Part shown: positions 3,255-48,331 of the stretch, piece by piece
Numbering within the stretch: the stretch's first letter is position 1
How the letters are laid out: every line of letters starts with the position of its first letter
Source: Escherichia coli
Lineage (GTDB): Bacteria > Pseudomonadota > Gammaproteobacteria > Enterobacterales > Enterobacteriaceae
Reading direction: 5' to 3' (one strand)
Length of the DNA: 64,000 nucleotides
Assembly: GCF_002854065.1 (NCBI RefSeq)
Contig: NZ_CP024153.1
Translations under genes and position numbers: made by a program
Notes under the pieces: generated by a model
Databases searched by the model: none
Seen by the model: only the letters and a program-made list of their open reading frames with translations
What the model was told of the DNA's origin: nothing

Positions 3255-3350
3255 GGCGATTTCGTCCGTCCGGGTTCCTTGGGAGTTAACGAACCTCTCC
3301 GGGCTGAAATAGCCATAGGTTTGTTTTTCTCGTTGGAGGTGTAGGAGAGG

Positions 3351-5157: not shown

Positions 5158-5343
5158 CTAGGTATCAGATGGCGACAATCTCGCCAATGCTGCGTTTAAA
5201 GTCGGCCTAGACACACCAAAGTGTTTTGCAACTTCAGCTTTCGTTATCTCTACATCCGACAGCATGGCCCTTGCCTTCCTGGCGTCTTCATCTGACATGG
5301 CCAAGGGTCGCCCACCGCGTCGCCCTCTTGCCCTTGCTGCCTC
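5158..5343 (-). pseudogene. Serine recombinase (resolvase/invertase) 3' fragment with C-terminal HTH, truncated by IS26
   Basis: Protein tail ...GRRGGRPLAMSDEDARKARAMLSDVEITKAEVAKHFGVSRPTLNAALARL resembles a resolvase C-terminal DNA-binding domain; upstream part replaced by IS26. Confidence 0.55.
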
Positions 5344-6163
5344 GGCACTGTTGCAAATAGTCGGTGGTGATAAACTTATCATCCCCTTTTGCTGATGGAG
5401 CTGCACATGAACCCATTCAAAGGCCGGCATTTTCAGCGTGACATCATTCTGTGGGCCGTACGCTGGTACTGCAAATACGGCATCAGTTACCGTGAGCTGC
5501 AGGAGATGCTGGCTGAACGCGGAGTGAATGTCGATCACTCCACGATTTACCGCTGGGTTCAGCGTTATGCGCCTGAAATGGAAAAACGGCTGCGCTGGTA
5601 CTGGCGTAACCCTTCCGATCTTTGCCCGTGGCACATGGATGAAACCTACGTGAAGGTCAATGGCCGCTGGGCGTATCTGTACCGGGCCGTCGACAGCCGG
5701 GGCCGCACTGTCGATTTTTATCTCTCCTCCCGTCGTAACAGCAAAGCTGCATACCGGTTTCTGGGTAAAATCCTCAACAACGTGAAGAAGTGGCAGATCC
5801 CGCGATTCATCAACACGGATAAAGCGCCCGCCTATGGTCGCGCGCTTGCTCTGCTCAAACGCGAAGGCCGGTGCCCGTCTGACGTTGAACACCGACAGAT
5901 TAAGTACCGGAACAACGTGATTGAATGCGATCATGGCAAACTGAAACGGATAATCGGCGCCACGCTGGGATTTAAATCCATGAAGACGGCTTACGCCACC
6001 ATCAAAGGTATTGAGGTGATGCGTGCACTACGCAAAGGCCAGGCCTCAGCATTTTATTATGGTGATCCCCTGGGCGAAATGCGCCTGGTAAGCAGAGTTT
6101 TTGAAATGTAAGGCCTTTGAATAAGACAAAAGGCTGCCTCATCGCTAACTTTGCAACAGTGCC
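5344..6163 (+). mobile_element. IS26 copy 2
   Basis: Identical to copy 1 including terminal repeats. Confidence 0.95.
5389..6111 (+). CDS. tnpA: IS26 transposase Tnp26 (Gly184 form)
   Basis: Identical 240-aa ORF. Confidence 0.95.
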   Translation: MLMELHMNPFKGRHFQRDIILWAVRWYCKYGISYRELQEMLAERGVNVDHSTIYRWVQRYAPEMEKRLRWYWRNPSDLCPWHMDETYVKVNGRWAYLYRAVDSRGRTVDFYLSSRRNSKAAYRFLGKILNNVKKWQIPRFINTDKAPAYGRALALLKREGRCPSDVEHRQIKYRNNVIECDHGKLKRIIGATLGFKSMKTAYATIKGIEVMRALRKGQASAFYYGDPLGEMRLVSRVFEM

Positions 6164-6409
6164 GTCGATTGAAACACGGTGCATCTGATCGGACAGGGCG
6201 TCTAAGAGCGGCGCAATACGTCTGATCTCATCGGCCGGCGATACAGGCCTCGCGTCCGGATGGCTGGCGGCCGGTCCGACATCCACGACGTCTGATCCGA
6301 CTCGCAGCATTTCGATCGCCGCGGTGACAGCGCCGGCGGGGTCTAGCCGCCGGCTCTCATCGAAGAAGGAGTCCTCGGTGAGATTCAGAATGCCGAACAC
6401 CGTCACCAT
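6164..6409 (-). pseudogene. sul1: sul1 dihydropteroate synthase, first ~82 codons only; truncated by IS26
   Basis: [82 protein letters not shown] then IS26. Confidence 0.9.
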
Positions 6410-10086: not shown

Positions 10087-10768
10087 ATGAAAACCGCCAC
10101 TGCGCCGTTACCACCGCTGCGTTCGGTCAAGGTTCTGGACCAGTTGCGTGAGCGCATACGCTACTTGCATTACAGTTTACGAACCGAACAGGCTTATGTC
10201 CACTGGGTTCGTGCCTTCATCCGTTTCCACGGTGTGCGTCACCCGGCAACCTTGGGCAGCAGCGAAGTCGAGGCATTTCTGTCCTGGCTGGCGAACGAGC
10301 GCAAGGTTTCGGTCTCCACGCATCGTCAGGCATTGGCGGCCTTGCTGTTCTTCTACGGCAAGGTGCTGTGCACGGATCTGCCCTGGCTTCAGGAGATCGG
10401 AAGACCTCGGCCGTCGCGGCGCTTGCCGGTGGTGCTGACCCCGGATGAAGTGGTTCGCATCCTCGGTTTTCTGGAAGGCGAGCATCGTTTGTTCGCCCAG
10501 CTTCTGTATGGAACGGGCATGCGGATCAGTGAGGGTTTGCAACTGCGGGTCAAGGATCTGGATTTCGATCACGGCACGATCATCGTGCGGGAGGGCAAGG
10601 GCTCCAAGGATCGGGCCTTGATGTTACCCGAGAGCTTGGCACCCAGCCTGCGCGAGCAGCTGTCGCGTGCACGGGCATGGTGGCTGAAGGACCAGGCCGA
10701 GGGCCGCAGCGGCGTTGCGCTTCCCGACGCCCTTGAGCGGAAGTATCCGCGCGCCGGGCATTCCTGGC
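10087..10768 (+). pseudogene. intI1: intI1 class 1 integrase, 3'-truncated by IS26 (about 227 of 337 codons)
   Basis: [53 protein letters not shown]...; ORF runs into the IS26 terminal repeat at 10769. Confidence 0.9.
10174..10202 (-). promoter_or_regulatory. Integron Pc cassette promoter, TGGACA-N17-TAAACT (PcH1-type)
   Basis: Hexamers read on minus strand inside the intI1 5' region. Confidence 0.6.
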
Positions 10769-11588
10769 GGCACTGTTGCAAATAGTCGGTGGTGATAAAC
10801 TTATCATCCCCTTTTGCTGATGGAGCTGCACATGAACCCATTCAAAGGCCGGCATTTTCAGCGTGACATCATTCTGTGGGCCGTACGCTGGTACTGCAAA
10901 TACGGCATCAGTTACCGTGAGCTGCAGGAGATGCTGGCTGAACGCGGAGTGAATGTCGATCACTCCACGATTTACCGCTGGGTTCAGCGTTATGCGCCTG
11001 AAATGGAAAAACGGCTGCGCTGGTACTGGCGTAACCCTTCCGATCTTTGCCCGTGGCACATGGATGAAACCTACGTGAAGGTCAATGGCCGCTGGGCGTA
11101 TCTGTACCGGGCCGTCGACAGCCGGGGCCGCACTGTCGATTTTTATCTCTCCTCCCGTCGTAACAGCAAAGCTGCATACCGGTTTCTGGGTAAAATCCTC
11201 AACAACGTGAAGAAGTGGCAGATCCCGCGATTCATCAACACGGATAAAGCGCCCGCCTATGGTCGCGCGCTTGCTCTGCTCAAACGCGAAGGCCGGTGCC
11301 CGTCTGACGTTGAACACCGACAGATTAAGTACCGGAACAACGTGATTGAATGCGATCATGGCAAACTGAAACGGATAATCGGCGCCACGCTGGGATTTAA
11401 ATCCATGAAGACGGCTTACGCCACCATCAAAGGTATTGAGGTGATGCGTGCACTACGCAAAGGCCAGGCCTCAGCATTTTATTATGGTGATCCCCTGGGC
11501 GAAATGCGCCTGGTAAGCAGAGTTTTTGAAATGTAAGGCCTTTGAATAAGACAAAAGGCTGCCTCATCGCTAACTTTGCAACAGTGCC
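10769..11588 (+). mobile_element. IS26 copy 3
   Basis: 820 bp with both terminal repeats. Confidence 0.95.
10814..11536 (+). CDS. tnpA: IS26 transposase Tnp26 (Gly184 form)
   Basis: Identical 240-aa ORF. Confidence 0.95.
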   Translation: MLMELHMNPFKGRHFQRDIILWAVRWYCKYGISYRELQEMLAERGVNVDHSTIYRWVQRYAPEMEKRLRWYWRNPSDLCPWHMDETYVKVNGRWAYLYRAVDSRGRTVDFYLSSRRNSKAAYRFLGKILNNVKKWQIPRFINTDKAPAYGRALALLKREGRCPSDVEHRQIKYRNNVIECDHGKLKRIIGATLGFKSMKTAYATIKGIEVMRALRKGQASAFYYGDPLGEMRLVSRVFEM

Positions 11589-11628
11589 AGACAAAAGGCT
11601 GCCTCATCGCTAACTTTGCAACAGTGCC
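11589..11628 (+). repeat. Tandem second copy of the last 40 bp of IS26 (remnant of an earlier IS26)
   Basis: AGACAAAAGGCTGCCTCATCGCTAACTTTGCAACAGTGCC occurs twice in direct succession (11549-11588 and 11589-11628). Confidence 0.85.
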
Positions 11629-15552: not shown

Positions 15553-15648
15553 TGCCGGGATAGACTATTATTCTCCCCGGAGCCACTACGCTGACCCGGT
15601 TGATTTCAGAGGTAAGGGAAAAGGCGACGTTGCGCCTGTGGAACAAAC

Positions 15649-16470
15649 GGCACTGTTGCAAAGTTAGCGATGAGGCAGCCTTTTGTCTTATTCAAAGGCC
15701 TTACATTTCAAAAACTCTGCTTACCAGGCGCATTTCGCCCAGGGGATCACCATAATAAAATGCTGAGGCCTGGCCTTTGCGTAGTGCACGCATCACCTCA
15801 ATACCTTTGATGGTGGCGTAAGCCGTCTTCATGGATTTAAATCCCAGCGTGGCGTTGATTATCCGTTTCAGTTTGCCATGATCGCATTCAATCACGTTGT
15901 TCCGGTACTTAATCTGTCGGTGTTCAACGTCAGACGGGCACCGGCCTTCGCGTTTTGAGCAGAGCAAGCGCGCGACCATAGGCGGGCGCTTTATCCGTGT
16001 TGATGAATCGTGGGAATCTGCCACTTCTTCACGTTGTTGAGGATTTTACCCAGAAACCGGTATGCAGCTTTGCTGTTACGACGGGAGGAGAGATAAAAAT
16101 CGACAGTGCGGCCCCGGCTGTCGACGGCCCGGTACAGATACGCCCAGCGGCCATTGACCTTCACGTAGGTTTCATCCATGTGCCACGGGCAAAGATCGGA
16201 AGGGTTACGCCAGTACCAGCGCAGCCGTTTTTCCATTTCAGGCGCATAACGCTGAACCCAGCGGTAAATCGTGGAGTGATCGACATTCACTCCGCGTTCA
16301 GCCAGCATCTCCTGCAGCTCACGGTAACTGATGCCGTATTTGCAGTACCAGCGTACGGCCCACAGAATGATGTCACGCTGAAAATGCCGGCCTTTGAATG
16401 GGTTCATGTGCAGCTCCATCAGCAAAAGGGGATGATAAGTTTATCACCACCGACTATTTGCAACAGTGCC
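15649..16470 (-). mobile_element. IS26 copy 4 (822 bp; two 1-bp insertions)
   Basis: Both terminal repeats present; extra A at about 16010 (GGGAATCTG vs GGGATCTG) and extra T at about 15953 (GCGTTTTGAGC vs GCGTTTGAGC). Confidence 0.95.
15701..16425 (-). pseudogene. tnpA: IS26 tnpA disrupted by frameshift (split into 144-aa and 107-aa ORFs; Asn184 form)
   Basis: ORFs 15991-16425 and 15701-16024 together cover Tnp26 with a frame change between them. Confidence 0.85.
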
Positions 16471-18527: not shown

Positions 18528-19532
18528 ATGGAAAACATTGCGCTCATTGGTATCGATCTGGGTAAAAACTCTTTCCATATTCATTGCCAAGATCGTCGCG
18601 GCAAGGCTGTTTACCGTAAAAAATTTACACGGCCAAAGTTAATCGAATTTTTGGCGACATGCCCCGCTACAACCATCGCAATGGAAGCCTGTGGTGGCTC
18701 TCACTTTATGGCACGCAAGTTGGAAGAGTTGGGGCATTTTCCTAAGCTGATATCACCACAATTTGTCCGTCCATTCGTTAAAAGTAACAAAAACGACTTT
18801 GTCGACGCCGAAGCTATTTGTGAAGCTGCATCGCGTCCGTCTATGCGTTTTGTACAGCCCAGAACTGAATCTCAGCAGGCAATGCGTGCGCTGCATCGTG
18901 TCCGTGAATCCCTGGTTCAGGATAAGGTAAAAACAACCAATCAGATGCATGCTTTTCTGCTGGAATTTGGCATCAGCGTTCCACGAGGAGCTGCCGTTAT
19001 TAGCCGACTGAGTACCCTTCTTGAGGACAATAGTTTGCCTCTATACCTCAGCCAGTTATTGCTGAAATTACAACAGCATTATCACTATCTTGTTGAGCAG
19101 ATTAAAGATTTGGAATCCCAGTTGAAACGAAAGTTGGACGAAGATGAGATTGGACAGCGCTTGCTGAGCATTCCCTGCGTCGGAACACTGACAGCGAGTA
19201 CTATTTCAACTGAGATTGGCGACGGGAAGCAGTACGCCAGCAGTCGTGACTTTGCGGCGGCAACAGGGCTAGTGCCTCGACAGTACAGCACGGGAGGTCG
19301 GACGACATTGCTGGGAATTAGTAAGCGAGGTAACAAAAAGATCCGAACTTTGTTGGTTCAATGTGCCAGGGTATTCATACAAAAACTGGAACACCAGTCT
19401 GGCAAATTGGCCGATTGGGTCAGGGATCTACTGTGTAGGAAAAGCAACTTTGTCGTCACTTGTGCTCTGGCAAACAAGCTGGCCAGAATAGCCTGGGCCC
19501 TAACGGCACGACAGCAAACTTATGTAGCATAA
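18528..19532 (+). CDS. IS110-family (DEDD) transposase/recombinase
   Basis: 334 aa MENIALIGIDLGKNSFHIHCQD... N-terminal RuvC-like DEDD character and C-terminal ...GISKRGNKKIRTLLVQCA... motif typical of the IS110 family. Confidence 0.85.
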   Translation: MENIALIGIDLGKNSFHIHCQDRRGKAVYRKKFTRPKLIEFLATCPATTIAMEACGGSHFMARKLEELGHFPKLISPQFVRPFVKSNKNDFVDAEAICEAASRPSMRFVQPRTESQQAMRALHRVRESLVQDKVKTTNQMHAFLLEFGISVPRGAAVISRLSTLLEDNSLPLYLSQLLLKLQQHYHYLVEQIKDLESQLKRKLDEDEIGQRLLSIPCVGTLTASTISTEIGDGKQYASSRDFAAATGLVPRQYSTGGRTTLLGISKRGNKKIRTLLVQCARVFIQKLEHQSGKLADWVRDLLCRKSNFVVTCALANKLARIAWALTARQQTYVA

Positions 19533-19807
19533 CGGCAGAAATACACCGGTTTAAAGAATCACTGATCTGGTTTTGCGAATACTGATATTGATGATACTAA
19601 CGGCCCACCGGCCTGTTGAGGAACCTGTAAAACGGAAAGGCTCATTGAAGCCGTATATTTTCTGGAGGTTCATCAGGCGCGGAACTCATCGAGGCGCGGG
19701 AATAAAATCCCATTCAGACGCCGGATAGATTCAAGCAAGCCAATTTATCGTCAAAATCGGTGTTGCAAAAACGGGAGTGACCATAGATTCCGTTTTCCAA
19801 GCGGACC

Positions 19808-19870
19808 CCGTGCTGTGTGGAAATCCGCCCACCTTGCCGGGCGCCGGTGCTGTGTGGAAATTCGCCCATC
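19808..19870. repeat. About 1.6 copies of the 37-bp repeat unit (inverted relative to the 56063-57150 array), just downstream of the truncated rep gene
   Basis: CCGTGCTGTGTGGAAATCCGCCCACCTTGCCGGGCGCCGGTGCTGTGTGGAAATTCGCCC is the reverse complement of the array unit. Confidence 0.75.
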
Positions 19871-19919
19871 TTCATGACAAAAATTTGTCAAATGACAGGC
19901 TCATGTGTGCTGATTTATG

Positions 19920-20601
19920 TCAGACGGGATTTTGCTTATCAATTATTGAGAACAGAAATTTTCCTGAATCATCAATACTATACTTAGCAAGTAAAGGTGT
20001 TTTCTCATTTATCTGCTTGAGAGCAGGATCAAGGAAAGATCGTTTCAACTCTGCCAAGTTCTTCTGTTGGGATTCCGGCAAAAGGAAACGGTCATTTAAC
20101 CAAGCATGAGTAGTAACCCATAAGCCTGAAGATTTGAATTGAGCAAGACTTTCATAAAGGCGGATCGTCCGTGGATTTCGAAGACTGCCACAATCGCGGA
20201 GCGAGTAGGTGGTGAACTGGTTCGTCAGGCCGTAAATGTACCGCAGGAGTTTATGGTTAAATTCGATTTCCCAGATACCACGAGCTGATCGGCTGCCAGC
20301 CTCTGTTAGCCAGGGGCGCGCGACGCAGTCAAAACTCCCTTCTTTCGGGTAAAAGATTACCGCAGAACGGCTTAACTCAAACACGCCTTCTTTAACATCC
20401 TTGATAGCCTGGTTACGGCTTACCTGAAAAATTTGCTGATAGTCAGCCACCTTTACTTTGAAAGTAGAGTCACCGAGTACAGCCATCTCATCATCATCTT
20501 CGCTTACTGAAGCTGTGAAATACGTCTGCATAAGACATAACCAGAGAACGCGCTTTGCTTTTAGCGAGAGGTAGTAAGCAGCTTCGGTAAGCTCGTTAGA
20601 C
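19920..20601 (-). pseudogene. Rep_3-family (RepE-like) replication initiator, N-terminally truncated by IS26
   Basis: ...NELTEAAYYLSLKAKRVLWL...IRLYESLAQF... parallels recalled F RepE ([20 protein letters not shown]...MRLYESLCQY); first 17 residues of the ORF come from the IS26 end. Confidence 0.75.
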
Positions 20602-21421
20602 GGCACTGTTGCAAAGTTAGCGATGAGGCAGCCTTTTGTCTTATTCAAAGGCCTTACATTTCAAAAACTCTGCTTACCAGGCGCATTTCGCCCAGGGGAT
20701 CACCATAATAAAATGCTGAGGCCTGGCCTTTGCGTAGTGCACGCATCACCTCAATACCTTTGATGGTGGCGTAAGCCGTCTTCATGGATTTAAATCCCAG
20801 CGTGGCGTTGATTATCCGTTTCAGTTTGCCATGATCGCATTCAATCACGTTGTTCCGGTACTTAATCTGTCGGTGTTCAACGTCAGACGGGCACCGGCCT
20901 TCGCGTTTGAGCAGAGCAAGCGCGCGACCATAGGCGGGCGCTTTATCCGTGTTGATGAATCGTGGGATCTGCCACTTCTTCACGTTGTTGAGGATTTTAC
21001 CCAGAAACCGGTATGCAGCTTTGCTGTTACGACGGGAGGAGAGATAAAAATCGACAGTGCGGCCCCGGCTGTCGACGGCCCGGTACAGATACGCCCAGCG
21101 GCCATTGACCTTCACGTAGGTTTCATCCATGTGCCACGGGCAAAGATCGGAAGGGTTACGCCAGTACCAGCGCAGCCGTTTTTCCATTTCAGGCGCATAA
21201 CGCTGAACCCAGCGGTAAATCGTGGAGTGATCGACATTCACTCCGCGTTCAGCCAGCATCTCCTGCAGCTCACGGTAACTGATGCCGTATTTGCAGTACC
21301 AGCGTACGGCCCACAGAATGATGTCACGCTGAAAATGCCGGCCTTTGAATGGGTTCATGTGCAGCTCCATCAGCAAAAGGGGATGATAAGTTTATCACCA
21401 CCGACTATTTGCAACAGTGCC
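20602..21421 (-). mobile_element. IS26 copy 5 (variant: Asn184 plus one synonymous change)
   Basis: 820 bp; ...KLKRIINATLGFKS... Confidence 0.95.
20654..21376 (-). CDS. tnpA: IS26 transposase Tnp26 (Asn184 form)
   Basis: 240-aa ORF; GGC to AAC at codon 184 relative to copies 1-3. Confidence 0.95.
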   Translation of the reverse strand: MLMELHMNPFKGRHFQRDIILWAVRWYCKYGISYRELQEMLAERGVNVDHSTIYRWVQRYAPEMEKRLRWYWRNPSDLCPWHMDETYVKVNGRWAYLYRAVDSRGRTVDFYLSSRRNSKAAYRFLGKILNNVKKWQIPRFINTDKAPAYGRALALLKREGRCPSDVEHRQIKYRNNVIECDHGKLKRIINATLGFKSMKTAYATIKGIEVMRALRKGQASAFYYGDPLGEMRLVSRVFEM

Positions 21422-21491
21422 GATTAGAGCACTATAAAGAACTAAAGAAATGAAGATACAAAGATACGAATATCTGAATAAAAACAGAAAA

Positions 21492-21612
21492 ATGCGTACC
21501 CATCCACCTTTCAGTGCGTACCCATCCACCTTTCAGTGCGCAGCCATCCACCTTTCATGAAAATTACAGTGCGTACCCATCCACCTTTCAGTGCGTACCC
21601 ATCCACCTTTCA
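21492..21612. repeat. Five direct 22-bp iteron-like repeats GTGCGTACCCATCCACCTTTCA (origin-like)
   Basis: Read directly; four near-perfect copies and one variant (GCGCAGCCATCCACCTTTCA). Confidence 0.75.
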
Positions 21613-21783
21613 TTTTGAGGCGACAAAAAACAACACCTATCTTAATGAAATTATTGATAAAAAAACTGGCACAATGTTTGCAGAATAAGTTAGAGTAAGT
21701 TAAAGATCTTAAAGTAGATCTACCGATCTACATTTAAGATCTTAAAAACAAGAAGTTTAATAAGCAAAAAAACACAAAAAATC

Positions 21784-21831
21784 TGTGGATAACTTTGCTC
21801 AAAACAAAAAATTCACACTACCTGTGGATAA
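21784..21831. promoter_or_regulatory. Two DnaA-box-like sites TGTGGATAA, 30 bp apart, in AT-rich DNA
   Basis: CTGTGGATAACTTTG appears twice; AT-rich context beside the iterons. Confidence 0.5.
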
Positions 21832-22474
21832 CTTTGCGTAAACCCAGAGGACAGATCACTCTGAACCAAGACAACCACACATAAAAACAATATGCTCGCT
21901 TTTTAACCACTGCGCGTAATTGCCTGATGTTATCCCTGTGCTGTTCCGCTTCCTCGCTCACTAACTCGCTACACTCGGTCGTTCGGCTGCGGCGAGCGGT
22001 GTCTCCTTTCTCAAAACCAGAAGAGTTCAGATCATACGATCCGTTGATTGATCCTTTTTGGATCTTTCACTGAGAAGCCCTGAATCGCTTTCTAACGCTT
22101 TGTTCGATGTAACCATGAGGAAAACCATGTGAAATCGAAAAAATCGCTCAGAATGCGATACAGCGCGTTTTAGAGGGTATTTACAAAACAGTCGTTGCCT
22201 TGAGGAAATTTTGATCAAGATTGAACTCCTATCCGGATCATGGCAACAGATCACAGCAACAAGGCCGCTAAAAAGCGTTGAGCGGCGTTAAAAACCGTTA
22301 AACCGTAGCTGACTATAACGAAACGGGAAAAAACGCTCAGAACGCGTTACAGAGCGTTTTAAGGCGATGTCGGAAAGAGCCATACCTCACCTGTTCTGAT
22401 GTTTTTCTCAACACAAGCACTTTTAAGAGTACTTTTAAAGATGCTATTATGCCAATAAGACAAGCGGAGGACTT

Positions 22475-22726
22475 ATGAGCTATCAAATTCTGACAACCAC
22501 AGCGGCCAGTATTACTGACCTGAAAAAAAATCCTATGGGAACCGTAGCTGAAGGTGAAGGGGACGCTGTTGCGATCCTGAACCGAAACGAACCGGCGTTC
22601 TATTGCGTTCCACCAAAACTTTACGCCTACTATCGGGAACTCGCTGAAGATGCTGAGTTAAACGCTGTTGCTGATGAGCGCATGAAAAACCCGGAAATTG
22701 TGAAGGTTAACCTGGATGACCTATGA
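22475..22726 (+). CDS. Phd/YefM/StbD-type antitoxin
   Basis: 83-aa ORF overlapping the downstream RelE-like gene by 11 bp; typical antitoxin size and arrangement. Confidence 0.7.
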   Translation: MSYQILTTTAASITDLKKNPMGTVAEGEGDAVAILNRNEPAFYCVPPKLYAYYRELAEDAELNAVADERMKNPEIVKVNLDDL

Positions 22727-22997
22727 ACTGGCTTTTGACCGCAGAGCACTGAAGGAATGGCAGAAACTCGGCCACACCATCCGTGAACAATTCAAAAAGA
22801 AGCTGGCAGAACGGCTGGAAAATCCACGCGTACCCGCAGCCCGGTTACATGGTCATGCTGATCGCTATAAAATCAAACTTCGTGCATCTGGCTACAGACT
22901 TGTATATCAAGTCATTGATGAGAAAGTCGTTTTACTCGTTATTGCTGTTGGAAGAAGGGAAAGCAGCGAAGTTTATCAGATTGCAGATATGCGCTGA
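22716..22997 (+). CDS. RelE/StbE/ParE-family toxin
   Basis: 93 aa MTYELAFDRRALKEWQKLGHTIREQFKKKLAERLENPRVPAARLHGHADRYKIKLRASGYRLVYQVIDEKVVLLVIAVGRRE, characteristic RelE/StbE pattern. Confidence 0.8.
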   Translation: MTYELAFDRRALKEWQKLGHTIREQFKKKLAERLENPRVPAARLHGHADRYKIKLRASGYRLVYQVIDEKVVLLVIAVGRRESSEVYQIADMR

Positions 22998-23183
22998 ACT
23001 GAAACCCGCCCCGTAATTCGCGGCTGCAGCCGCTCAGACGCGCAGATGCTACACACCGTCACGGCGTACCGTTCGCAAGCTTACGCGCTAACTGCGAAAG
23101 GCTAATTGCGTGTTGTTAGTCCGGTAATGGGCTTTGCAGGGAGGGGGGATGTCCCTGATCTTAATTAAGCTGGTTTGTTTCCG

Positions 23184-23325
23184 GGCACTGTTGCAAAGTT
23201 AGCGATGAGGCAGCCTTTTGTCTTATTCAAAGGCCTTACATTTCAAAAACTCTGCTTACCAGGCGCATTTCGCCCAGGGGATCACCATAATAAAATGCTG
23301 AGGCCTGGCCTTTGCGTAGTGCACG
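23184..23325 (-). mobile_element. IS26 fragment (142 bp of one end, internally truncated)
   Basis: GGCACTGTTGCAAAGTTAGCGATGAGG...GCGTAGTGCACG matches the IS26 end, then diverges. Confidence 0.9.
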
Positions 23326-25002
23326 TATAGGAAATTGAAAAACCAGTCGATACCATTGTCCACGCCTTATGCCACGTGAGCCTTTCTGCTTTTCCCACCA
23401 CTCCGGTGGTTTCCCTCTCTGTATGGTCGATTTTTATACCGTAACAGGCTGTTTTTTATACTTTCACCGATTCCCGGGCACACTTAGCCTGTGTCAGGCC
23501 GGCATATACCTCAGTAGACTGATATCCCGCGCGTTTTTCTTCAGCCCTGATACATTCAGCCCCGCAATGGCCCGGCGGTATACCATCCGGCAGCCACACA
23601 GCACGCATTCGAACGGGTCACGACTCAGGAACTGTTTCACCATTTGTGCATAGCACACTTTCGCCACTGGTTCCGGTTTATCCATCCCCAGTGCACGGTA
23701 CACCTGCGGCAGCTTCTCTCCACACACACGGTTGGCAAGGAACCCGAAGTACCTCACCATCTTAAAAAACTTCTCCGGGATGTGCTGTTTCAGCCTCGCG
23801 ACCAGCTCACGCTGTGTCAGCGTTTCCGTCGCCGTTTCTCCCGTTTTGTGGTCCAGGTAACGGAAGCTCAGGCTTGCCCCTCCGTTGTAATGAGCCAGTC
23901 GGGAAGCCGCTATTGGTGGCTTCTTCAGATAACGACCCAGGTAGCGTGCCGTATTCCGCCCTCCGGCTGTCTTCTTCGACATGTACACATGCCAGTATTT
24001 TCCGCCGGATTTCAGCACCAGGCTTCTCCACTGTGATTCCGTCGTGATATGTGACAACGACTCCGGCATTGCCATCCCCTCTGACCACGCTTTCAGAAGC
24101 AGCTGCCGCATATTCCACATCCACCGTGAACGCATCGCGTCTTTCAGGAAGCTCAGCTTTTTCCACTGACCATGCTTATTCAGACCTCCACAGGTTACAG
24201 ACACATGTACATGCGGATGCCAGTTGAGACGACGGCCATACGTGTGGATGGCGCAGAAGATACCGGGTTCCAGCCCCCGTTTTCGGGCGGCATACAGCAG
24301 ATTCTCCACCGCCAGACGGCACACGTCATTCAGCAGCCAGCGGTTGCTTTCGAACACCGGCCACAGCGTGTCCGGCAGGGTGAAGACCAGATGTACCCAG
24401 TCGCAGTCAGGAAGACGATTCAGCTGTGTTGCTGTCCACAGGTCTGTGGCCTTCTTTCCGCAGGACGGGCAGGCACGGCTGCCGCATGAGTTGGTCAGGT
24501 ACTTTACGTGCTGACAGTCCGGGTTATCACACCCGAACTCTTTTACACCCAGTATCCGTGTGCCGCAGGCCAGCATTTTGGTGACGGCTTCAACCTCGAT
24601 ATCGCGCAGACCGCCCGCATCCAGGAAGGACGTCCAGCACTGGTTGGCTGTGAACAGACGTTTCAGAGGGCGGGGAGTAAAACCGGACAACATGAGGATG
24701 GATTAAACCCCGGTATCCTGTAGCAGGGTAAGGGCTGCTGTATCGCCACGGCGCTTCAGGATGGAGGTCGTCACCATCGCAGGTGGTGGGTCCATGGGTT
24801 TGAGCATTTTCATCCAGTCCCATTCTCGTTGTGAGAGCTTCTCAGCACCAACAGAGAGCAGAACTGTATCGATACTTTTGCGGGTCAACATAAGGGGATG
24901 AGTCCTTAATAAAACAGGTCCTCAGAGCATACATATTCTGCGGGGCGTGCGGCAACAACAGGACGAACCGGGGCGGTTTTCAATTTGCAGCCGCCAGGCT
25001 GC
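23326..25002 (-). mobile_element. IS91-family rolling-circle element (IS1294-like, about 1.68 kb); boundaries approximate
   Basis: Single HUH/Y2-type transposase ORF plus small upstream ORF; length consistent with IS1294; one end duplicated at 16471-16584. Confidence 0.65.
23494..24693 (-). CDS. tnpA: IS91-family (IS1294-like) transposase
   Basis: 399 aa with Cys-rich zinc-binding N-terminus (CGTRILGVKEFGCDNPDCQHVKYLTNSCGSRACPSCGKK), HVH (HPHVHVSV) motif and C-terminal tyrosines typical of IS91-family Y2 transposases. Confidence 0.85.
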   Translation of the reverse strand: MLSGFTPRPLKRLFTANQCWTSFLDAGGLRDIEVEAVTKMLACGTRILGVKEFGCDNPDCQHVKYLTNSCGSRACPSCGKKATDLWTATQLNRLPDCDWVHLVFTLPDTLWPVFESNRWLLNDVCRLAVENLLYAARKRGLEPGIFCAIHTYGRRLNWHPHVHVSVTCGGLNKHGQWKKLSFLKDAMRSRWMWNMRQLLLKAWSEGMAMPESLSHITTESQWRSLVLKSGGKYWHVYMSKKTAGGRNTARYLGRYLKKPPIAASRLAHYNGGASLSFRYLDHKTGETATETLTQRELVARLKQHIPEKFFKMVRYFGFLANRVCGEKLPQVYRALGMDKPEPVAKVCYAQMVKQFLSRDPFECVLCGCRMVYRRAIAGLNVSGLKKNARDISLLRYMPA

Positions 25003-26448
25003 CGTGGTTCATGATAACTTCTGCTCTTCATCGTGCGGCCGACTGGGCTAAATCTGTGTTCTCTTCGGCGGCGCTGGGTGATCCTCGCCGTACTGCCCGC
25101 TTGGTTAACGTCGCCGCCCAATTGGCAAAATATTCTGGTAAATCAATAACCATCTCATCAGAGGGTAGTGAAGCCATGCAGGAAGGCGCTTACCGATTTA
25201 TCCGCAATCCCAACGTTTCTGCCGAGGCGATCAGAAAGGCTGGCGCCATGCAAACAGTCAAGTTGGCTCAGGAGTTTCCCGAACTGCTGGCCATTGAGGA
25301 CACCACCTCTTTGAGTTATCGCCACCAGGTCGCCGAAGAGCTTGGCAAGCTGGGCTCTATTCAGGATAAATCCCGCGGATGGTGGGTTCACTCCGTTCTC
25401 TTGCTCGAGGCCACCACATTCCGCACCGTAGGATTACTGCATCAGGAGTGGTGGATGCGCCCGGATGACCCTGCCGATGCGGATGAAAAGGAGAGTGGCA
25501 AATGGCTGGCAGCGGCCGCAACTAGCCGGTTACGCATGGGCAGCATGATGAGCAACGTGATTGCGGTCTGTGACCGCGAAGCCGATATTCATGCTTATCT
25601 GCAGGACAAACTGGCGCATAACGAGCGCTTCGTGGTGCGCTCCAAGCACCCACGCAAGGACGTAGAGTCTGGGTTGTATCTGTACGACCATCTGAAGAAC
25701 CAACCGGAGTTGGGTGGCTATCAGATCAGCATTCCGCAAAAGGGCGTGGTGGATAAACGCGGTAAACGTAAAAATCGACCAGCCCGCAAGGCGAGCTTGA
25801 GCCTGCGCAGTGGGCGCATCACGCTAAAACAGGGGAATATCACGCTCAACGCGGTGCTGGCCGAGGAGATTAACCCGCCCAAGGGTGAGACCCCGTTGAA
25901 ATGGTTGTTGCTGACCAGCGAACCGGTCGAGTCGCTAGCCCAAGCCTTGCGCGTCATCGACATTTATACCCATCGCTGGCGGATCGAGGAGTTCCATAAG
26001 GCATGGAAAACCGGAGCAGGAGCCGAGAGGCAACGCATGGAGGAGCCGGATAATCTGGAGCGGATGGTCTCGATCCTCTCGTTTGTTGCGGTCAGGCTGT
26101 TACAGCTCAGAGAAAGCTTCACGCTGCCGCAAGCACTCAGGGCGCAAGGGCTGCTAAAGGAAGCGGAACACGTAGAAAGCCAGTCCGCAGAAACGGTGCT
26201 GACCCCGGATGAATGTCAGCTACTGGGCTATCTGGACAAGGGAAAACGCAAGCGCAAAGAGAAAGCAGGTAGCTTGCAGTGGGCTTACATGGCGATAGCT
26301 AGACTGGGCGGTTTTATGGACAGCAAGCGAACCGGAATTGCCAGCTGGGGCGCCCTCTGGTAAGGTTGGGAAGCCCTGCAAAGTAAACTGGATGGCTTTC
26401 TTGCCGCCAAGGATCTGATGGCGCAGGGGATCAAGATCTGATCAAGAG
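25003..26448 (+). mobile_element. IS50L of Tn5, outside end (~85 bp) missing
   Basis: Homology to IS50 begins about 8 bp before the tnp start; ochre codon truncates Tnp as in IS50L; inside end CTGATCAAGAGACAG precedes aph(3')-IIa. Confidence 0.85.
25011..26363 (+). CDS. tnp: IS50L transposase (C-terminally short form ending ...GIASWGALW)
   Basis: 450 aa MITSALHRAADWAKSVFSSAALGDPRRTARLVNVAAQLAKYSGKSITISSEG... Confidence 0.9.
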   Translation: MITSALHRAADWAKSVFSSAALGDPRRTARLVNVAAQLAKYSGKSITISSEGSEAMQEGAYRFIRNPNVSAEAIRKAGAMQTVKLAQEFPELLAIEDTTSLSYRHQVAEELGKLGSIQDKSRGWWVHSVLLLEATTFRTVGLLHQEWWMRPDDPADADEKESGKWLAAAATSRLRMGSMMSNVIAVCDREADIHAYLQDKLAHNERFVVRSKHPRKDVESGLYLYDHLKNQPELGGYQISIPQKGVVDKRGKRKNRPARKASLSLRSGRITLKQGNITLNAVLAEEINPPKGETPLKWLLLTSEPVESLAQALRVIDIYTHRWRIEEFHKAWKTGAGAERQRMEEPDNLERMVSILSFVAVRLLQLRESFTLPQALRAQGLLKEAEHVESQSAETVLTPDECQLLGYLDKGKRKRKEKAGSLQWAYMAIARLGGFMDSKRTGIASWGALW

Positions 26449-26457
26449 ACAGGATGA

Positions 26458-27264
<807 letters not shown>

Positions 27265-27284
27265 GCGGGACTCTGGGGTTCGAA

Positions 27285-27457
27285 ATGACCGACCAAGCGA
27301 CGCCCAACCTGCCATCACGAGATTTCGATTCCACCGCCGCCTTCTATGAAAGGTTGGGCTTCGGAATCGTTTTCCGGGACGCCGGCTGGATGATCCTCCA
27401 GCGCGGGGATCTCATGCTGGAGTTCTTCGCCCACCCCGGGCTCGATCCCCTCGCGAG
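27285..27457 (+). pseudogene. ble: Tn5 ble (bleomycin resistance), 3'-truncated by IS26
   Basis: MTDQATPNLPSRDFDSTAAFYERLGFGIVFRDAGWMILQRGDLMLEFFAHPGLDPLA then IS26 end. Confidence 0.85.
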
Positions 27458-28277
27458 GGCACTGTTGCAAATAGTCGGTGGTGATAAACTTATCATCCCC
27501 TTTTGCTGATGGAGCTGCACATGAACCCATTCAAAGGCCGGCATTTTCAGCGTGACATCATTCTGTGGGCCGTACGCTGGTACTGCAAATACGGCATCAG
27601 TTACCGTGAGCTGCAGGAGATGCTGGCTGAACGCGGAGTGAATGTCGATCACTCCACGATTTACCGCTGGGTTCAGCGTTATGCGCCTGAAATGGAAAAA
27701 CGGCTGCGCTGGTACTGGCGTAACCCTTCCGATCTTTGCCCGTGGCACATGGATGAAACCTACGTGAAGGTCAATGGCCGCTGGGCGTATCTGTACCGGG
27801 CCGTCGACAGCCGGGGCCGCACTGTCGATTTTTATCTCTCCTCCCGTCGTAACAGCAAAGCTGCATACCGGTTTCTGGGTAAAATCCTCAACAACGTGAA
27901 GAAGTGGCAGATCCCACGATTCATCAACACGGATAAAGCGCCCGCCTATGGTCGCGCGCTTGCTCTGCTCAAACGCGAAGGCCGGTGCCCGTCTGACGTT
28001 GAACACCGACAGATTAAGTACCGGAACAACGTGATTGAATGCGATCATGGCAAACTGAAACGGATAATCAACGCCACGCTGGGATTTAAATCCATGAAGA
28101 CGGCTTACGCCACCATCAAAGGTATTGAGGTGATGCGTGCACTACGCAAAGGCCAGGCCTCAGCATTTTATTATGGTGATCCCCTGGGCGAAATGCGCCT
28201 GGTAAGCAGAGTTTTTGAAATGTAAGGCCTTTGAATAAGACAAAAGGCTGCCTCATCGCTAACTTTGCAACAGTGCC
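27458..28277 (+). mobile_element. IS26 copy 6 (Asn184 variant); left arm of Tn6010-like oqx unit
   Basis: 820 bp with terminal repeats. Confidence 0.95.
27503..28225 (+). CDS. tnpA: IS26 transposase Tnp26 (Asn184 form)
   Basis: 240-aa ORF. Confidence 0.95.
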   Translation: MLMELHMNPFKGRHFQRDIILWAVRWYCKYGISYRELQEMLAERGVNVDHSTIYRWVQRYAPEMEKRLRWYWRNPSDLCPWHMDETYVKVNGRWAYLYRAVDSRGRTVDFYLSSRRNSKAAYRFLGKILNNVKKWQIPRFINTDKAPAYGRALALLKREGRCPSDVEHRQIKYRNNVIECDHGKLKRIINATLGFKSMKTAYATIKGIEVMRALRKGQASAFYYGDPLGEMRLVSRVFEM

Positions 28278-33473: not shown

Positions 33474-34293
33474 GGCACTGTTGCAAATAGTCGGTGGTGA
33501 TAAACTTATCATCCCCTTTTGCTGATGGAGCTGCACATGAACCCATTCAAAGGCCGGCATTTTCAGCGTGACATCATTCTGTGGGCCGTACGCTGGTACT
33601 GCAAATACGGCATCAGTTACCGTGAGCTGCAGGAGATGCTGGCTGAACGCGGAGTGAATGTCGATCACTCCACGATTTACCGCTGGGTTCAGCGTTATGC
33701 GCCTGAAATGGAAAAACGGCTGCGCTGGTACTGGCGTAACCCTTCCGATCTTTGCCCGTGGCACATGGATGAAACCTACGTGAAGGTCAATGGCCGCTGG
33801 GCGTATCTGTACCGGGCCGTCGACAGCCGGGGCCGCACTGTCGATTTTTATCTCTCCTCCCGTCGTAACAGCAAAGCTGCATACCGGTTTCTGGGTAAAA
33901 TCCTCAACAACGTGAAGAAGTGGCAGATCCCACGATTCATCAACACGGATAAAGCGCCCGCCTATGGTCGCGCGCTTGCTCTGCTCAAACGCGAAGGCCG
34001 GTGCCCGTCTGACGTTGAACACCGACAGATTAAGTACCGGAACAACGTGATTGAATGCGATCATGGCAAACTGAAACGGATAATCAACGCCACGCTGGGA
34101 TTTAAATCCATGAAGACGGCTTACGCCACCATCAAAGGTATTGAGGTGATGCGTGCACTACGCAAAGGCCAGGCCTCAGCATTTTATTATGGTGATCCCC
34201 TGGGCGAAATGCGCCTGGTAAGCAGAGTTTTTGAAATGTAAGGCCTTTGAATAAGACAAAAGGCTGCCTCATCGCTAACTTTGCAACAGTGCC
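33474..34293 (+). mobile_element. IS26 copy 7 (Asn184 variant); right arm of Tn6010-like oqx unit
   Basis: 820 bp with terminal repeats; same orientation as copy 6. Confidence 0.95.
33519..34241 (+). CDS. tnpA: IS26 transposase Tnp26 (Asn184 form)
   Basis: 240-aa ORF. Confidence 0.95.
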   Translation: MLMELHMNPFKGRHFQRDIILWAVRWYCKYGISYRELQEMLAERGVNVDHSTIYRWVQRYAPEMEKRLRWYWRNPSDLCPWHMDETYVKVNGRWAYLYRAVDSRGRTVDFYLSSRRNSKAAYRFLGKILNNVKKWQIPRFINTDKAPAYGRALALLKREGRCPSDVEHRQIKYRNNVIECDHGKLKRIINATLGFKSMKTAYATIKGIEVMRALRKGQASAFYYGDPLGEMRLVSRVFEM

Positions 34294-47929: not shown

Positions 47930-48331
47930 TTGTCTGACTCAGCTACACTTAACCGGTACCTGTCTGAAAGGAATTATTATATGAAAATCAAAAACACCCT
48001 TTTTGTAATATTAATGTTATCCCTGCCAGCCATTTCTGCTGAACATTCGGAAATGAAAATGTCAGATATGCACTCATCGGCATCATCACAGGAATATATG
48101 GCTGGCATGAAAAATATGCATGAAAAAATGATGGCCGCCGTTAATGAATCCAATCCCGATAAGGCCTTTGCAAAAGGTATGATCGCACACCATGAAGGGG
48201 CAATCGCAATGGCTGAGACCGAGCTCAAATACGGAAAAGATCCCGAAATGAGAAAGCTTGCGCAGGACATCATTAAAGCTCAAAAAGGTGAAATTGAGCA
48301 GATGAATAAATGGCTTGACAGTCATAAATAA
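47930..48331 (+). CDS. DUF305-family periplasmic protein (metal-resistance associated); true start probably internal (about 47981)
   Basis: Signal peptide MKIKNTLFVILMLSLPAISA and ...GMIAHHEGAIAMAE... motif. Confidence 0.65.
   Translation: MSDSATLNRYLSERNYYMKIKNTLFVILMLSLPAISAEHSEMKMSDMHSSASSQEYMAGMKNMHEKMMAAVNESNPDKAFAKGMIAHHEGAIAMAETELKYGKDPEMRKLAQDIIKAQKGEIEQMNKWLDSHK

Follow-up and report, generated by a model that had tools for sequence, protein, structure and literature searches.

The 64-kb stretch of Escherichia coli DNA analysed here (64,000 nt of contig NZ_CP024153.1, assembly GCF_002854065.1; hereafter the window) carries at positions 21944-22000 a 57-nt element that is probably a phiX174-type primosome assembly site (n'-pas, ssiA or factor-Y effector site), one of a widespread and conserved family and a portable module. 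Three observations carry this reading: the element is homologous to the ColE1 site, it keeps a fixed position and polarity beside plasmid origins, and the bases of its closing helix covary. From these we infer dependence on PriA, an active strand and a role in the replication of IncX plasmids.

Homology to the ColE1 origin flank

Compared with the pMB1 57-mer TTCCGCTTCCTCGCTCACTGACTCGCTGCGCTCGGTCGTTCGGCTGCGGCGAGCGGT, the plus strand of the element is identical at 54 of 57 positions (94.7%), slightly above the roughly 90% at which an earlier note on this DNA had put its resemblance to the pMB1 origin flank, and this match supplies the sequence homology expected of a phiX174-type site. All three mismatches are G to A and fall mid-element, in the spacer. 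The window holds no other match to the pMB1 57-mer, and none of 100 dinucleotide-preserving shuffles matched. The similarity had been placed at 21925-21995; the element is indeed there, with limits some 5-20 bp away from those of the core found here.

A megablast search of 21850-22450 against 72,556 plasmid records, a comparison that the earlier note had suggested, matched 1,756 records. At least 80% of the query was covered in 898 of them, which are IncX1-like, and most of the others were mobilizable plasmids of 2-10 kb that matched only about 21939-22016, with 91-97% identity and E values of 1e-15 to 4e-20, Yersinia pestis pPCP1 among them. With 21930-22025 as the query, a more sensitive search matched at least 5,000 records. 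The similarity does not extend, as had already been noticed: against ColE1-type plasmids it stops after 57-78 bp, the longest match being the 78 bp shared with pPCP1 (21939-22016).

A short match of this kind could be a functionless scrap of a ColE1 origin flank, left behind by cointegration or recombination between an IncX1 plasmid and a small ColE1/pMB1 plasmid, and a relic of small-plasmid cointegration was one of two explanations first offered for it. The identity of 91-98% to ColE1-type plasmids, the abrupt end of the similarity and the many IS26-mediated rearrangements in the window all agree with such an origin, and IncX plasmids mobilise co-resident ColE1-like plasmids, so that the two do meet (PMC4222815). 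Yet an Rfam search of 19000-25000 with E up to 1 returned no RNAI, RNAII or other match, an RNAI profile built with nhmmer from three ColE1-like plasmids found nothing in the window, and no similarity exceeds 78 bp or reaches ori or rop. The element also holds a fixed place in the IncX backbone, with the same position and polarity in IncX1, IncX3 and IncX4 despite flanks that cannot be aligned, and it adjoins F, RepB and ColE2-type origins as well. Neutral DNA would have decayed along with its flanks, and it is on these conservation data that the scrap explanation fails. The plasmid and genome searches moreover returned the pattern named beforehand as speaking against a relic, a match of no more than about 60 bp that is widespread in unrelated contexts. 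We regard a ColE1 scrap as extremely improbable, and the second explanation, a shared structural motif, gains support from the ColE1 ssiA/n'-pas position and from compensatory changes in the helix. For the window this closes a false lead: it hides no ColE1 replicon and no ColE1 cointegration scar, and the element is genuine but ordinary.

All three of pPCP1, pST3606-3 and a 1.9-kb Klebsiella plasmid have the element between rop and ori, with RNAI encoded on its strand. A scan of 100,044 species genomes with a pattern fixing both conserved blocks gave 69 loci, which we pooled with fetched plasmid and metagenome loci to count distances to RNAI. RNAI was found near the element in 45 pooled loci, on the same side and strand in all 45, at 477-1277 bp (median 507). 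RNAI starts about 445 nt upstream of the RNA/DNA switch, and combining this figure with the measured distances places the element about 50-170 bp downstream of ori (the switch) in ColE1-type loci. Judged by its position, the ColE1-type element would be the lagging-strand primosome assembly site (ssiA or n'-pas), and the L-strand factor-Y site, which we take to lie at about 2350-2420 of pBR322, is consistent with this. Two pUC-type contigs (L018 and L080; L numbers are our locus labels) retain pMB1 sequence as far as GGCGCTCTTCCGC and no further, which makes the element the final stretch of pMB1 DNA downstream of their ori. Allen et al. (2011) describe ssiA as exposed by DNA polymerase I (Pol I) extension, as recruiting PriA and as retained in pUC-type vectors, with ssiB further downstream and lost or displaced in those vectors (PMC3167613); primosome assembly sites near the pBR322 origin are also described elsewhere (PMC8246471). 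The ColE1/pMB1/pBR322 site, variously called ssiA, n'-pas, the L-strand factor-Y effector site and rriA, has blocks TTCCGCTTCCTCGCTCACT and CGTTCGGCTGCGGCGAGCGGT identical to those of the window, the same predicted closing helix and a similar GCGTAAG-like upstream motif. The window differs in having no RNA II or RNAI, and its three G-to-A spacer changes weaken the long pMB1 hairpin.

Many of the genome-contig matches (L016-L084) came from non-enteric assemblies (Streptomyces, Microbacterium, Hymenobacter and metagenome-assembled genomes) with pUC-, pBR322- or p15A-type flanks; these are probably vector or plasmid contamination and were not used for host range. One contig of Pseudomonas sp. A-RE-19 (L072, 2617-2685) has a ColE1-type left flank and a 3' flank, ACTCTCCTTTCT, that resembles the block following the element in IncX1 and IncX4, and may be a recombinant joined within the element.

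Position and polarity beside plasmid origins

In IncX1, IncX3 and IncX4 plasmids the element lies 390-710 bp upstream of the initiator start codon, past the AT-rich region and DnaA box, and always with the same polarity. This holds for IncX1 (the window, L001, L006, L063 and L078), IncX3 (L008, L013 and L014) and IncX4 (L005), and an untyped IncX-like plasmid (L015) has it in the same place and polarity. Sliding-window identity over the whole intergenic region of IncX pairs picked out the element, at 75-92% identity, from surrounding DNA that aligns at 30-50%. Between IncX1 and IncX4 the background of 0.30-0.50 gives way to 0.83-0.88 over about 230 bp, starting exactly at TTCCGC; the other two pairs have a similar background, with a peak of 0.82 at the element only between IncX1 and IncX3, and a peak of 0.77 at the element between IncX4 and IncX3, where the AT-rich regions also reach 0.78. 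Element-bearing origin flanks of this kind are common: at least 80% of a 231-bp IncX3 query was covered in about 950 records, and of the equivalent 301-bp IncX4 query in about 350.

The F plasmid has the element at 48031-48079 of its record. The order there is repE, four iterons, AT-rich region, two DnaA boxes, a GTGTGTAAGCAG motif and the element, with the polarity seen in the window. The F copy differs from that of the window in its spacer, which is the IncX3-like CGAGGGCTTCGCCCTGTCGCTCGA, and in its helix ends, which are GTGCT/AGCAC without AAGCGG where the window has CCGCT/AGCGG. The F initiator is RepE of the Rep_3 family as against Pir in IncX, and the distance from DnaA boxes to element is about 70 nt as against about 110 nt. 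A primosome assembly site was reportedly mapped at F ori2 by Imber, Low and Ray in 1983 (PNAS 80:7132).

Other replicon types carry the element too. In pKPX1-type plasmids of Klebsiella and E. coli, it lies 335 bp upstream of an initiator gene of the RepB family (RepB/Rep_3), with five iterons, GATC sites and a DnaA box in between, in the arrangement found in F. A Citrobacter plasmid with a ColE2-type Rep (PF03090) has it 219 bp past the rep stop codon, on the ColE2 ori side and with ColE1-like polarity. Further contexts include contigs of Erwinia, Pantoea and Mixta, where it occurs with an IncFII-RepA-like gene near toxin-antitoxin and DnaJ-domain genes, and intervals between sopB and umuC. 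The copies in IncX1, IncX3, IncX4, F and RepB replicons thus lie next to an origin, as is expected of a primosome assembly site.

Polarity follows the type of origin. In the Pol I-dependent replicons (ColE1 and ColE2) the origin is on the GCGAGCGG side of the element, as in 45 of 45 ColE1-type loci, where the distance is 50-170 bp and Pol I, in extending RNA II, exposes the site. In iteron replicons (IncX, F and RepB) the origin is on the TTCCGC side, as found for 20 scored loci (nine with Pir, 11 RepB-like) and for F, with a single RepB-like locus as the exception. The window follows the iteron pattern, its iterons, AT-rich region and DnaA boxes all lying on the TTCCGC side, so that its polarity is the reverse of that in ColE1.

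In many large plasmids (L085, 5079-6781, and the right flanks of L088, L101, L116 and L120), the end of a umuC/umuD-like operon (Y-family polymerase) follows an F-type element after 70-80 bp, on the opposite strand; the left neighbour in some of these loci is sopA/sopB rather than rep. In Pantoea stewartii (L026-L028) and Mixta mediterraneensis (L069-L070) a canonical element has flanks unlike those of ColE1, IncX or F and adjoins toxin-antitoxin genes of the RelE/HigA type, and in L027 the neighbouring DnaJ-domain gene is like the one that follows the IncX2, IncX3 and IncX4 origins.

The spacer variants of the element do not track replicon phylogeny. Of about 900 matches to the IncX4 variant, mostly small Klebsiella plasmids, a large share agree with it at 100%; the IncX3 variant recurs without a mismatch over 50 bp in roughly 1,400 large plasmids of Klebsiella and E. 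coli; and the IncX1b variant is 98% identical to a Salmonella ColE1-like plasmid. This distribution points to a module that is exchanged between co-resident plasmids, on top of selection for its sequence. Exchange might also be the whole story: homologous recombination or gene conversion would carry a short patch from one co-resident plasmid to another, and the patch would prime only in ColE1-type plasmids and be a passenger or a cointegrate hotspot in IncX. Variants shared across replicons irrespective of phylogeny are what such a patch would produce, and R6K does without the element; left unexplained are the constant spot and polarity by the DnaA boxes in three IncX subgroups, F and RepB replicons, and the changes at the ends of the element that preserve base pairing. 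We consider a patch of this kind unlikely. The 57 near-identical bases in co-resident Col, F and IncX plasmids could also be a substrate for homologous cointegrate formation.

Neither natural R6K (IncX2; NZ_LT827129, L010) nor a second IncX2 plasmid contains the element; a first R6K-like match (H246) was rejected as the insert of an engineered suicide vector. The R6K gamma origin otherwise has the layout of the IncX1 origin type in the window, with pir, iterons, AT-rich region and DnaA box. In R6K the 14-mer CACTGAGAAGCCCT follows 25 nt after the DnaA box, whereas about 250 bp including the element stand in between in IncX1 and IncX4. At 3290-3330 of R6K the DnaA box lies within a small inverted repeat (GTTG TGGA CAAC). 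A DnaA-box hairpin of R6K was reportedly the substrate that defined the "ABC primosome" ssi, and may be the functional counterpart of the element at the equivalent position.

Were the IncX copies functional, replication of the major mcr-1 and NDM vectors would include a step dependent on PriA, which the R6K model does not foresee. We put forward only tentatively, as a possibility that we rather doubt, the full version of this proposal: that a PriA-dependent site is a functioning component of the IncX1, IncX3 and IncX4 origins (these plasmids being the main carriers of mcr-1 and blaNDM), that R6K has lost it, so that its model does not fully cover the IncX plasmids that matter in the clinic, and that a portable cassette of about 57-100 nt has passed between no fewer than five unrelated classes of replicon (ColE1, ColE2, IncX, F/RepE and other Rep_3). 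More generally, ColE1-, ColE2-, F-, RepB- and IncX-type origins have one sequence-conserved, putative priming module in common, its polarity set by the type of origin, and the element would be a useful marker for annotating plasmid origins.

Folding, covariation and a proposed mechanism

The element consists of two conserved blocks around a variable spacer (Table 1). Block A is invariant in seven IncX and ColE1-like sequences (alignment A2), and its alignment columns 10-24 are invariant in 94 distinct sequences. In block B, CTGCGGCGAGC is likewise invariant in these 94 sequences but was fixed by the search patterns; the adjoining GG and the bases it pairs with change jointly, GG becoming AC. 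Sixteen spacer variants occur among 85 sources, and the exact variant of the window, AACTCGCTACACTCGGT, was seen in IncX1 contexts only. The spacer of the F/IncX3 type forms a GGGC-NNN-GCCC hairpin whose stem is kept while the loop varies (TTC, TAT, GAT, CTT, TTT or TGC), with a compensatory GGGA/TCCC at one locus. About 25-30 nt before block A stands the weakly conserved upstream motif (consensus about GCGT[A/C]AG). A similar motif occurs at a similar distance in IncX1, IncX3, IncX4, ColE1-like plasmids, the Klebsiella RepB replicon and F, and it may be part of a full site of about 90-100 nt. The hexamer AAGCGG, considered as a signature of the family, is present on the minus strand here; its absence from the F-type variant led us to set it aside as not defining the family, and a literature search for it returned nothing but primer sequences.

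When the main variants were folded as single-stranded DNA, most formed, on both strands, a closing helix of CCGCT/AGCGG and CGC/GCG with a 4-nt bulge, enclosing variable inner hairpins. RNAalifold with DNA parameters gave only a weak consensus of -6 kcal/mol for 61 canonical sequences, which, with both blocks fixed by the first scan, offered no covariation to use. A second scan, of metagenome data, required only a non-G after GCGAGC and returned 120 loci, in about 115 of which GTGCT...AGCAC replaces CCGCT...AGCGG. Across the 94 distinct sequences, helix pair 8-62 is CG in 56 and GC in 38 and never unpaired, and pair 9-61 is CG in 54, TA in 37 and unpaired in three, the three being C.A on the plus strand and G.T on the complement. 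The metagenome scan had selected column 61 only, leaving column 9 and pair 8-62 free to vary. The covariation score was reached by none of 500 shuffles, and controls in which the pairing was slid scored lower or, at +3, about equal. These double compensatory changes, from CCGCT/AGCGG to GTGCT/AGCAC, give the predicted closing helix support that is good but not overwhelming.

The element could instead be a signal in duplex DNA or RNA, either an origin protein-binding site or an intrinsic terminator that shields the origin from transcription. On the plus strand, a consensus scan did call a hairpin at 21978-22000 that, with its T-rich tail, resembles a terminator, and the element does stand between the origin and the stbDE operon. 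Such calls are at background, however, with two found where 1.2 are expected (promoter calls are likewise at background), the T-rich tail is absent from the ColE1, F and RepB copies, whose flanks differ, and the invariant blocks reach far beyond the called hairpin. As to a bound protein, the only candidate binders common to ColE1, ColE2, F and IncX are host replication factors. A duplex or RNA signal therefore seems to us very improbable.

For a primosome assembly site, the preferred reading, we propose the following mechanism. PriA in general nucleates primosome assembly on fork-like structures in single-stranded DNA (PMC5778457). Once the element is single-stranded, its blocks would pair as predicted (CCGCT/AGCGG and CGC/GCG with the 4-nt bulge) around the variable inner hairpin; on DNA coated with SSB, the resulting fork-like structure would be recognised by PriA, which, helped by PriB, DnaT and DnaC, would load DnaB and DnaG, so that priming could take place without DnaA. 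In ColE1 geometry the active strand would be the complement, 5'-ACCGCTCGCC...GAGGAAGCGGAA-3', because of the orientation of RNAI and the standard ColE1 model, in which RNA II is antisense to RNAI. In ColE1 and ColE2 the site would lie on the strand displaced by Pol I just downstream of ori and start lagging-strand synthesis there. In the iteron replicons (IncX1, IncX3, IncX4, F ori2 and Klebsiella RepB) it lies just outside the DnaA boxes with the opposite polarity; if the same strand is active, DnaB would move toward the iterons and primers would be extended away from them. The site would then prime the strand that leaves the origin opposite rep, as an auxiliary priming and helicase-loading site.

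The prototype of such a site is the complementary-strand origin of phiX174, for which the same action is proposed (a fork-like hairpin in SSB-coated DNA, then PriA, then PriB-DnaT-DnaB/C-DnaG); the likeness drawn here is one of proposed mechanism, and the phiX174 origin is a phage site where the element flanks plasmid origins. A closer parallel in role may be the G-site (a G4-type ssi) that Masai and Arai reportedly described in 1989 downstream of oriR in R1/R100. It is said to be set off by a few hundred bp from an origin that needs an initiator, on the side opposite rep, and to give rise to a primer that is extended away from this origin, which is the role suggested here for the IncX copy; it is also said to differ in being recognised by primase alone and in belonging to a different sequence family.

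Several points weigh against the element as a primosome assembly site, or limit how far the reading carries. Folding of 86-146 nt of single-stranded DNA, on both strands, was no stabler than that of shuffles (z of +0.25 to +1.55). The covariation probably reflects few events, namely one large F-type lineage and the intermediates L106, L122 and L183, and the hexamer AAGCGG is missing from the F-type variant. Among the F-type copies, some are found in the sopB-umuC interval, where no initiator gene is close by. The reversal of polarity between ColE1/ColE2 and the iteron replicons means that the ColE1 mechanism is not simply transferable, and because R6K replicates without the element, it is not essential to gamma-type origins. 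Primosome sites of this sequence family have long been known in ColE1 and, probably, in F, where one was reportedly mapped at ori2 in 1983; the pBR322 factor-Y site probably falls on these 57 nt. Among the papers accessible to our searches, none connects IncX plasmids with the primosome.

The orphan IncX1 origin of the window

In the window, the element belongs to an IS26-bounded passenger fragment that carries an IncX1 origin, stbDE and aph(3')-IIa and has no initiator gene (Table 1). From left to right, the order is IS26, iterons, AT-rich GATC region, DnaA boxes, the GCGCGTAA motif, element and stbDE, and about 110 bp separate the second DnaA box from the element. The IncX1 plasmid pD90-3 matches 21422 to about 27450 at 100% identity and has two initiator genes where IS26 stands here. 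A segment of the IncHI2 plasmid pSTM6-275 matches the stretch from IS26 to IS26 (20602-27457) at 99.9% identity. A cointegration relic is thus present after all, of a different kind: an IS26-bounded IncX1 segment, not a ColE1 scrap.

Searching with four Pir proteins (tblastn) found no Pir homologue in the 64 kb. The minus-strand open reading frame at 20654-21376 was considered as pir and rejected, since tblastn identified it as the IS26 transposase; the frame within 20601-21422 is 99.6% identical to that transposase, and the terminal inverted repeats of this left IS26 copy are at 20602-20615 and 21408-21421. Of the parts of an IncX gamma-type origin, the window has the iterons, the AT-rich segment and the DnaA boxes and lacks a pir/repX gene in cis. 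Because IS26 removed pir from the fragment, the origin is probably silent and the element probably idle here.

Table 1. Features of the element and its surroundings, in window coordinates
Feature	Position	Strand	Basis
IS26 copy truncating the IncX1 replicon 71 bp to the left of iteron 1, with loss of pir	20601-21422	-	tblastn
Five 22-bp IncX1 iterons, TGCGTACCCATCCACCTTTCAG, with an 11-nt gap after the third	21493-21613		
AT-rich segment with four GATC sites in palindromes, presumed unwinding region	21614-21766		
Two DnaA boxes, TGTGGATAA, within a 37-nt direct repeat	21784-21792, 21823-21831		
Upstream motif, GCGCGTAA	21912-21919		
Element core, putative phiX174-type primosome assembly site (n'-pas/ssiA type)	21944-22000	-	pMB1 homology
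Element as written on the plus strand, TTCCGCTTCC...GCGAGCGGT	21944-22000		
Block A, TTCCGCTTCCTCGCTCACT, 5' helix halves CCGCT and CGC with a 4-nt bulge between	21944-21962		
Variable spacer (17-18 nt), here AACTCGCTACACTCGGT	21963-21979		
Block B, CGTTCGGCTGCGGCGAGCGGT, 3' helix halves GCG and AGCGG	21980-22000		
Conserved IncX1/IncX4 block, about 170 bp, immediately following the element	22001-22173		
stbD/stbE addiction genes (RelB/RelE type), IncX1 backbone	22475-22997	+	
IS26 end remnant, 142 bp	23184-23325		
IS26 copy closing the IncX1-derived segment (21422-27457) on the right	27458-28277		
Full IS26 copies	1981-2801, 5342-6164, 10766-11589, 15648-16470, 20601-21422, 27458-28277, 33474-34293		

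The block that follows the element is 83-88% identical between IncX1 and IncX4 and is not conserved in IncX3 or R6K. It has four GATC sites within 35 bp (22030-22064), and CACTGAGAAGCCCT is the only piece of it in common with the flank of the R6K gamma origin.

The seven full IS26 copies in the first 35 kb are typical of an IS26-built multiresistance array, of which the IncX1 fragment is one passenger. Upstream of stbD, a 42-nt direct repeat with the core CGCTCAGAAYGCGWTACAGMGCGTTTTA occurs in two copies (22131-22172 and 22320-22361) that are 83% identical and 189 bp apart, and that may serve as an operator or centromere-like site; a minus-strand terminator-like call overlaps the first of them.

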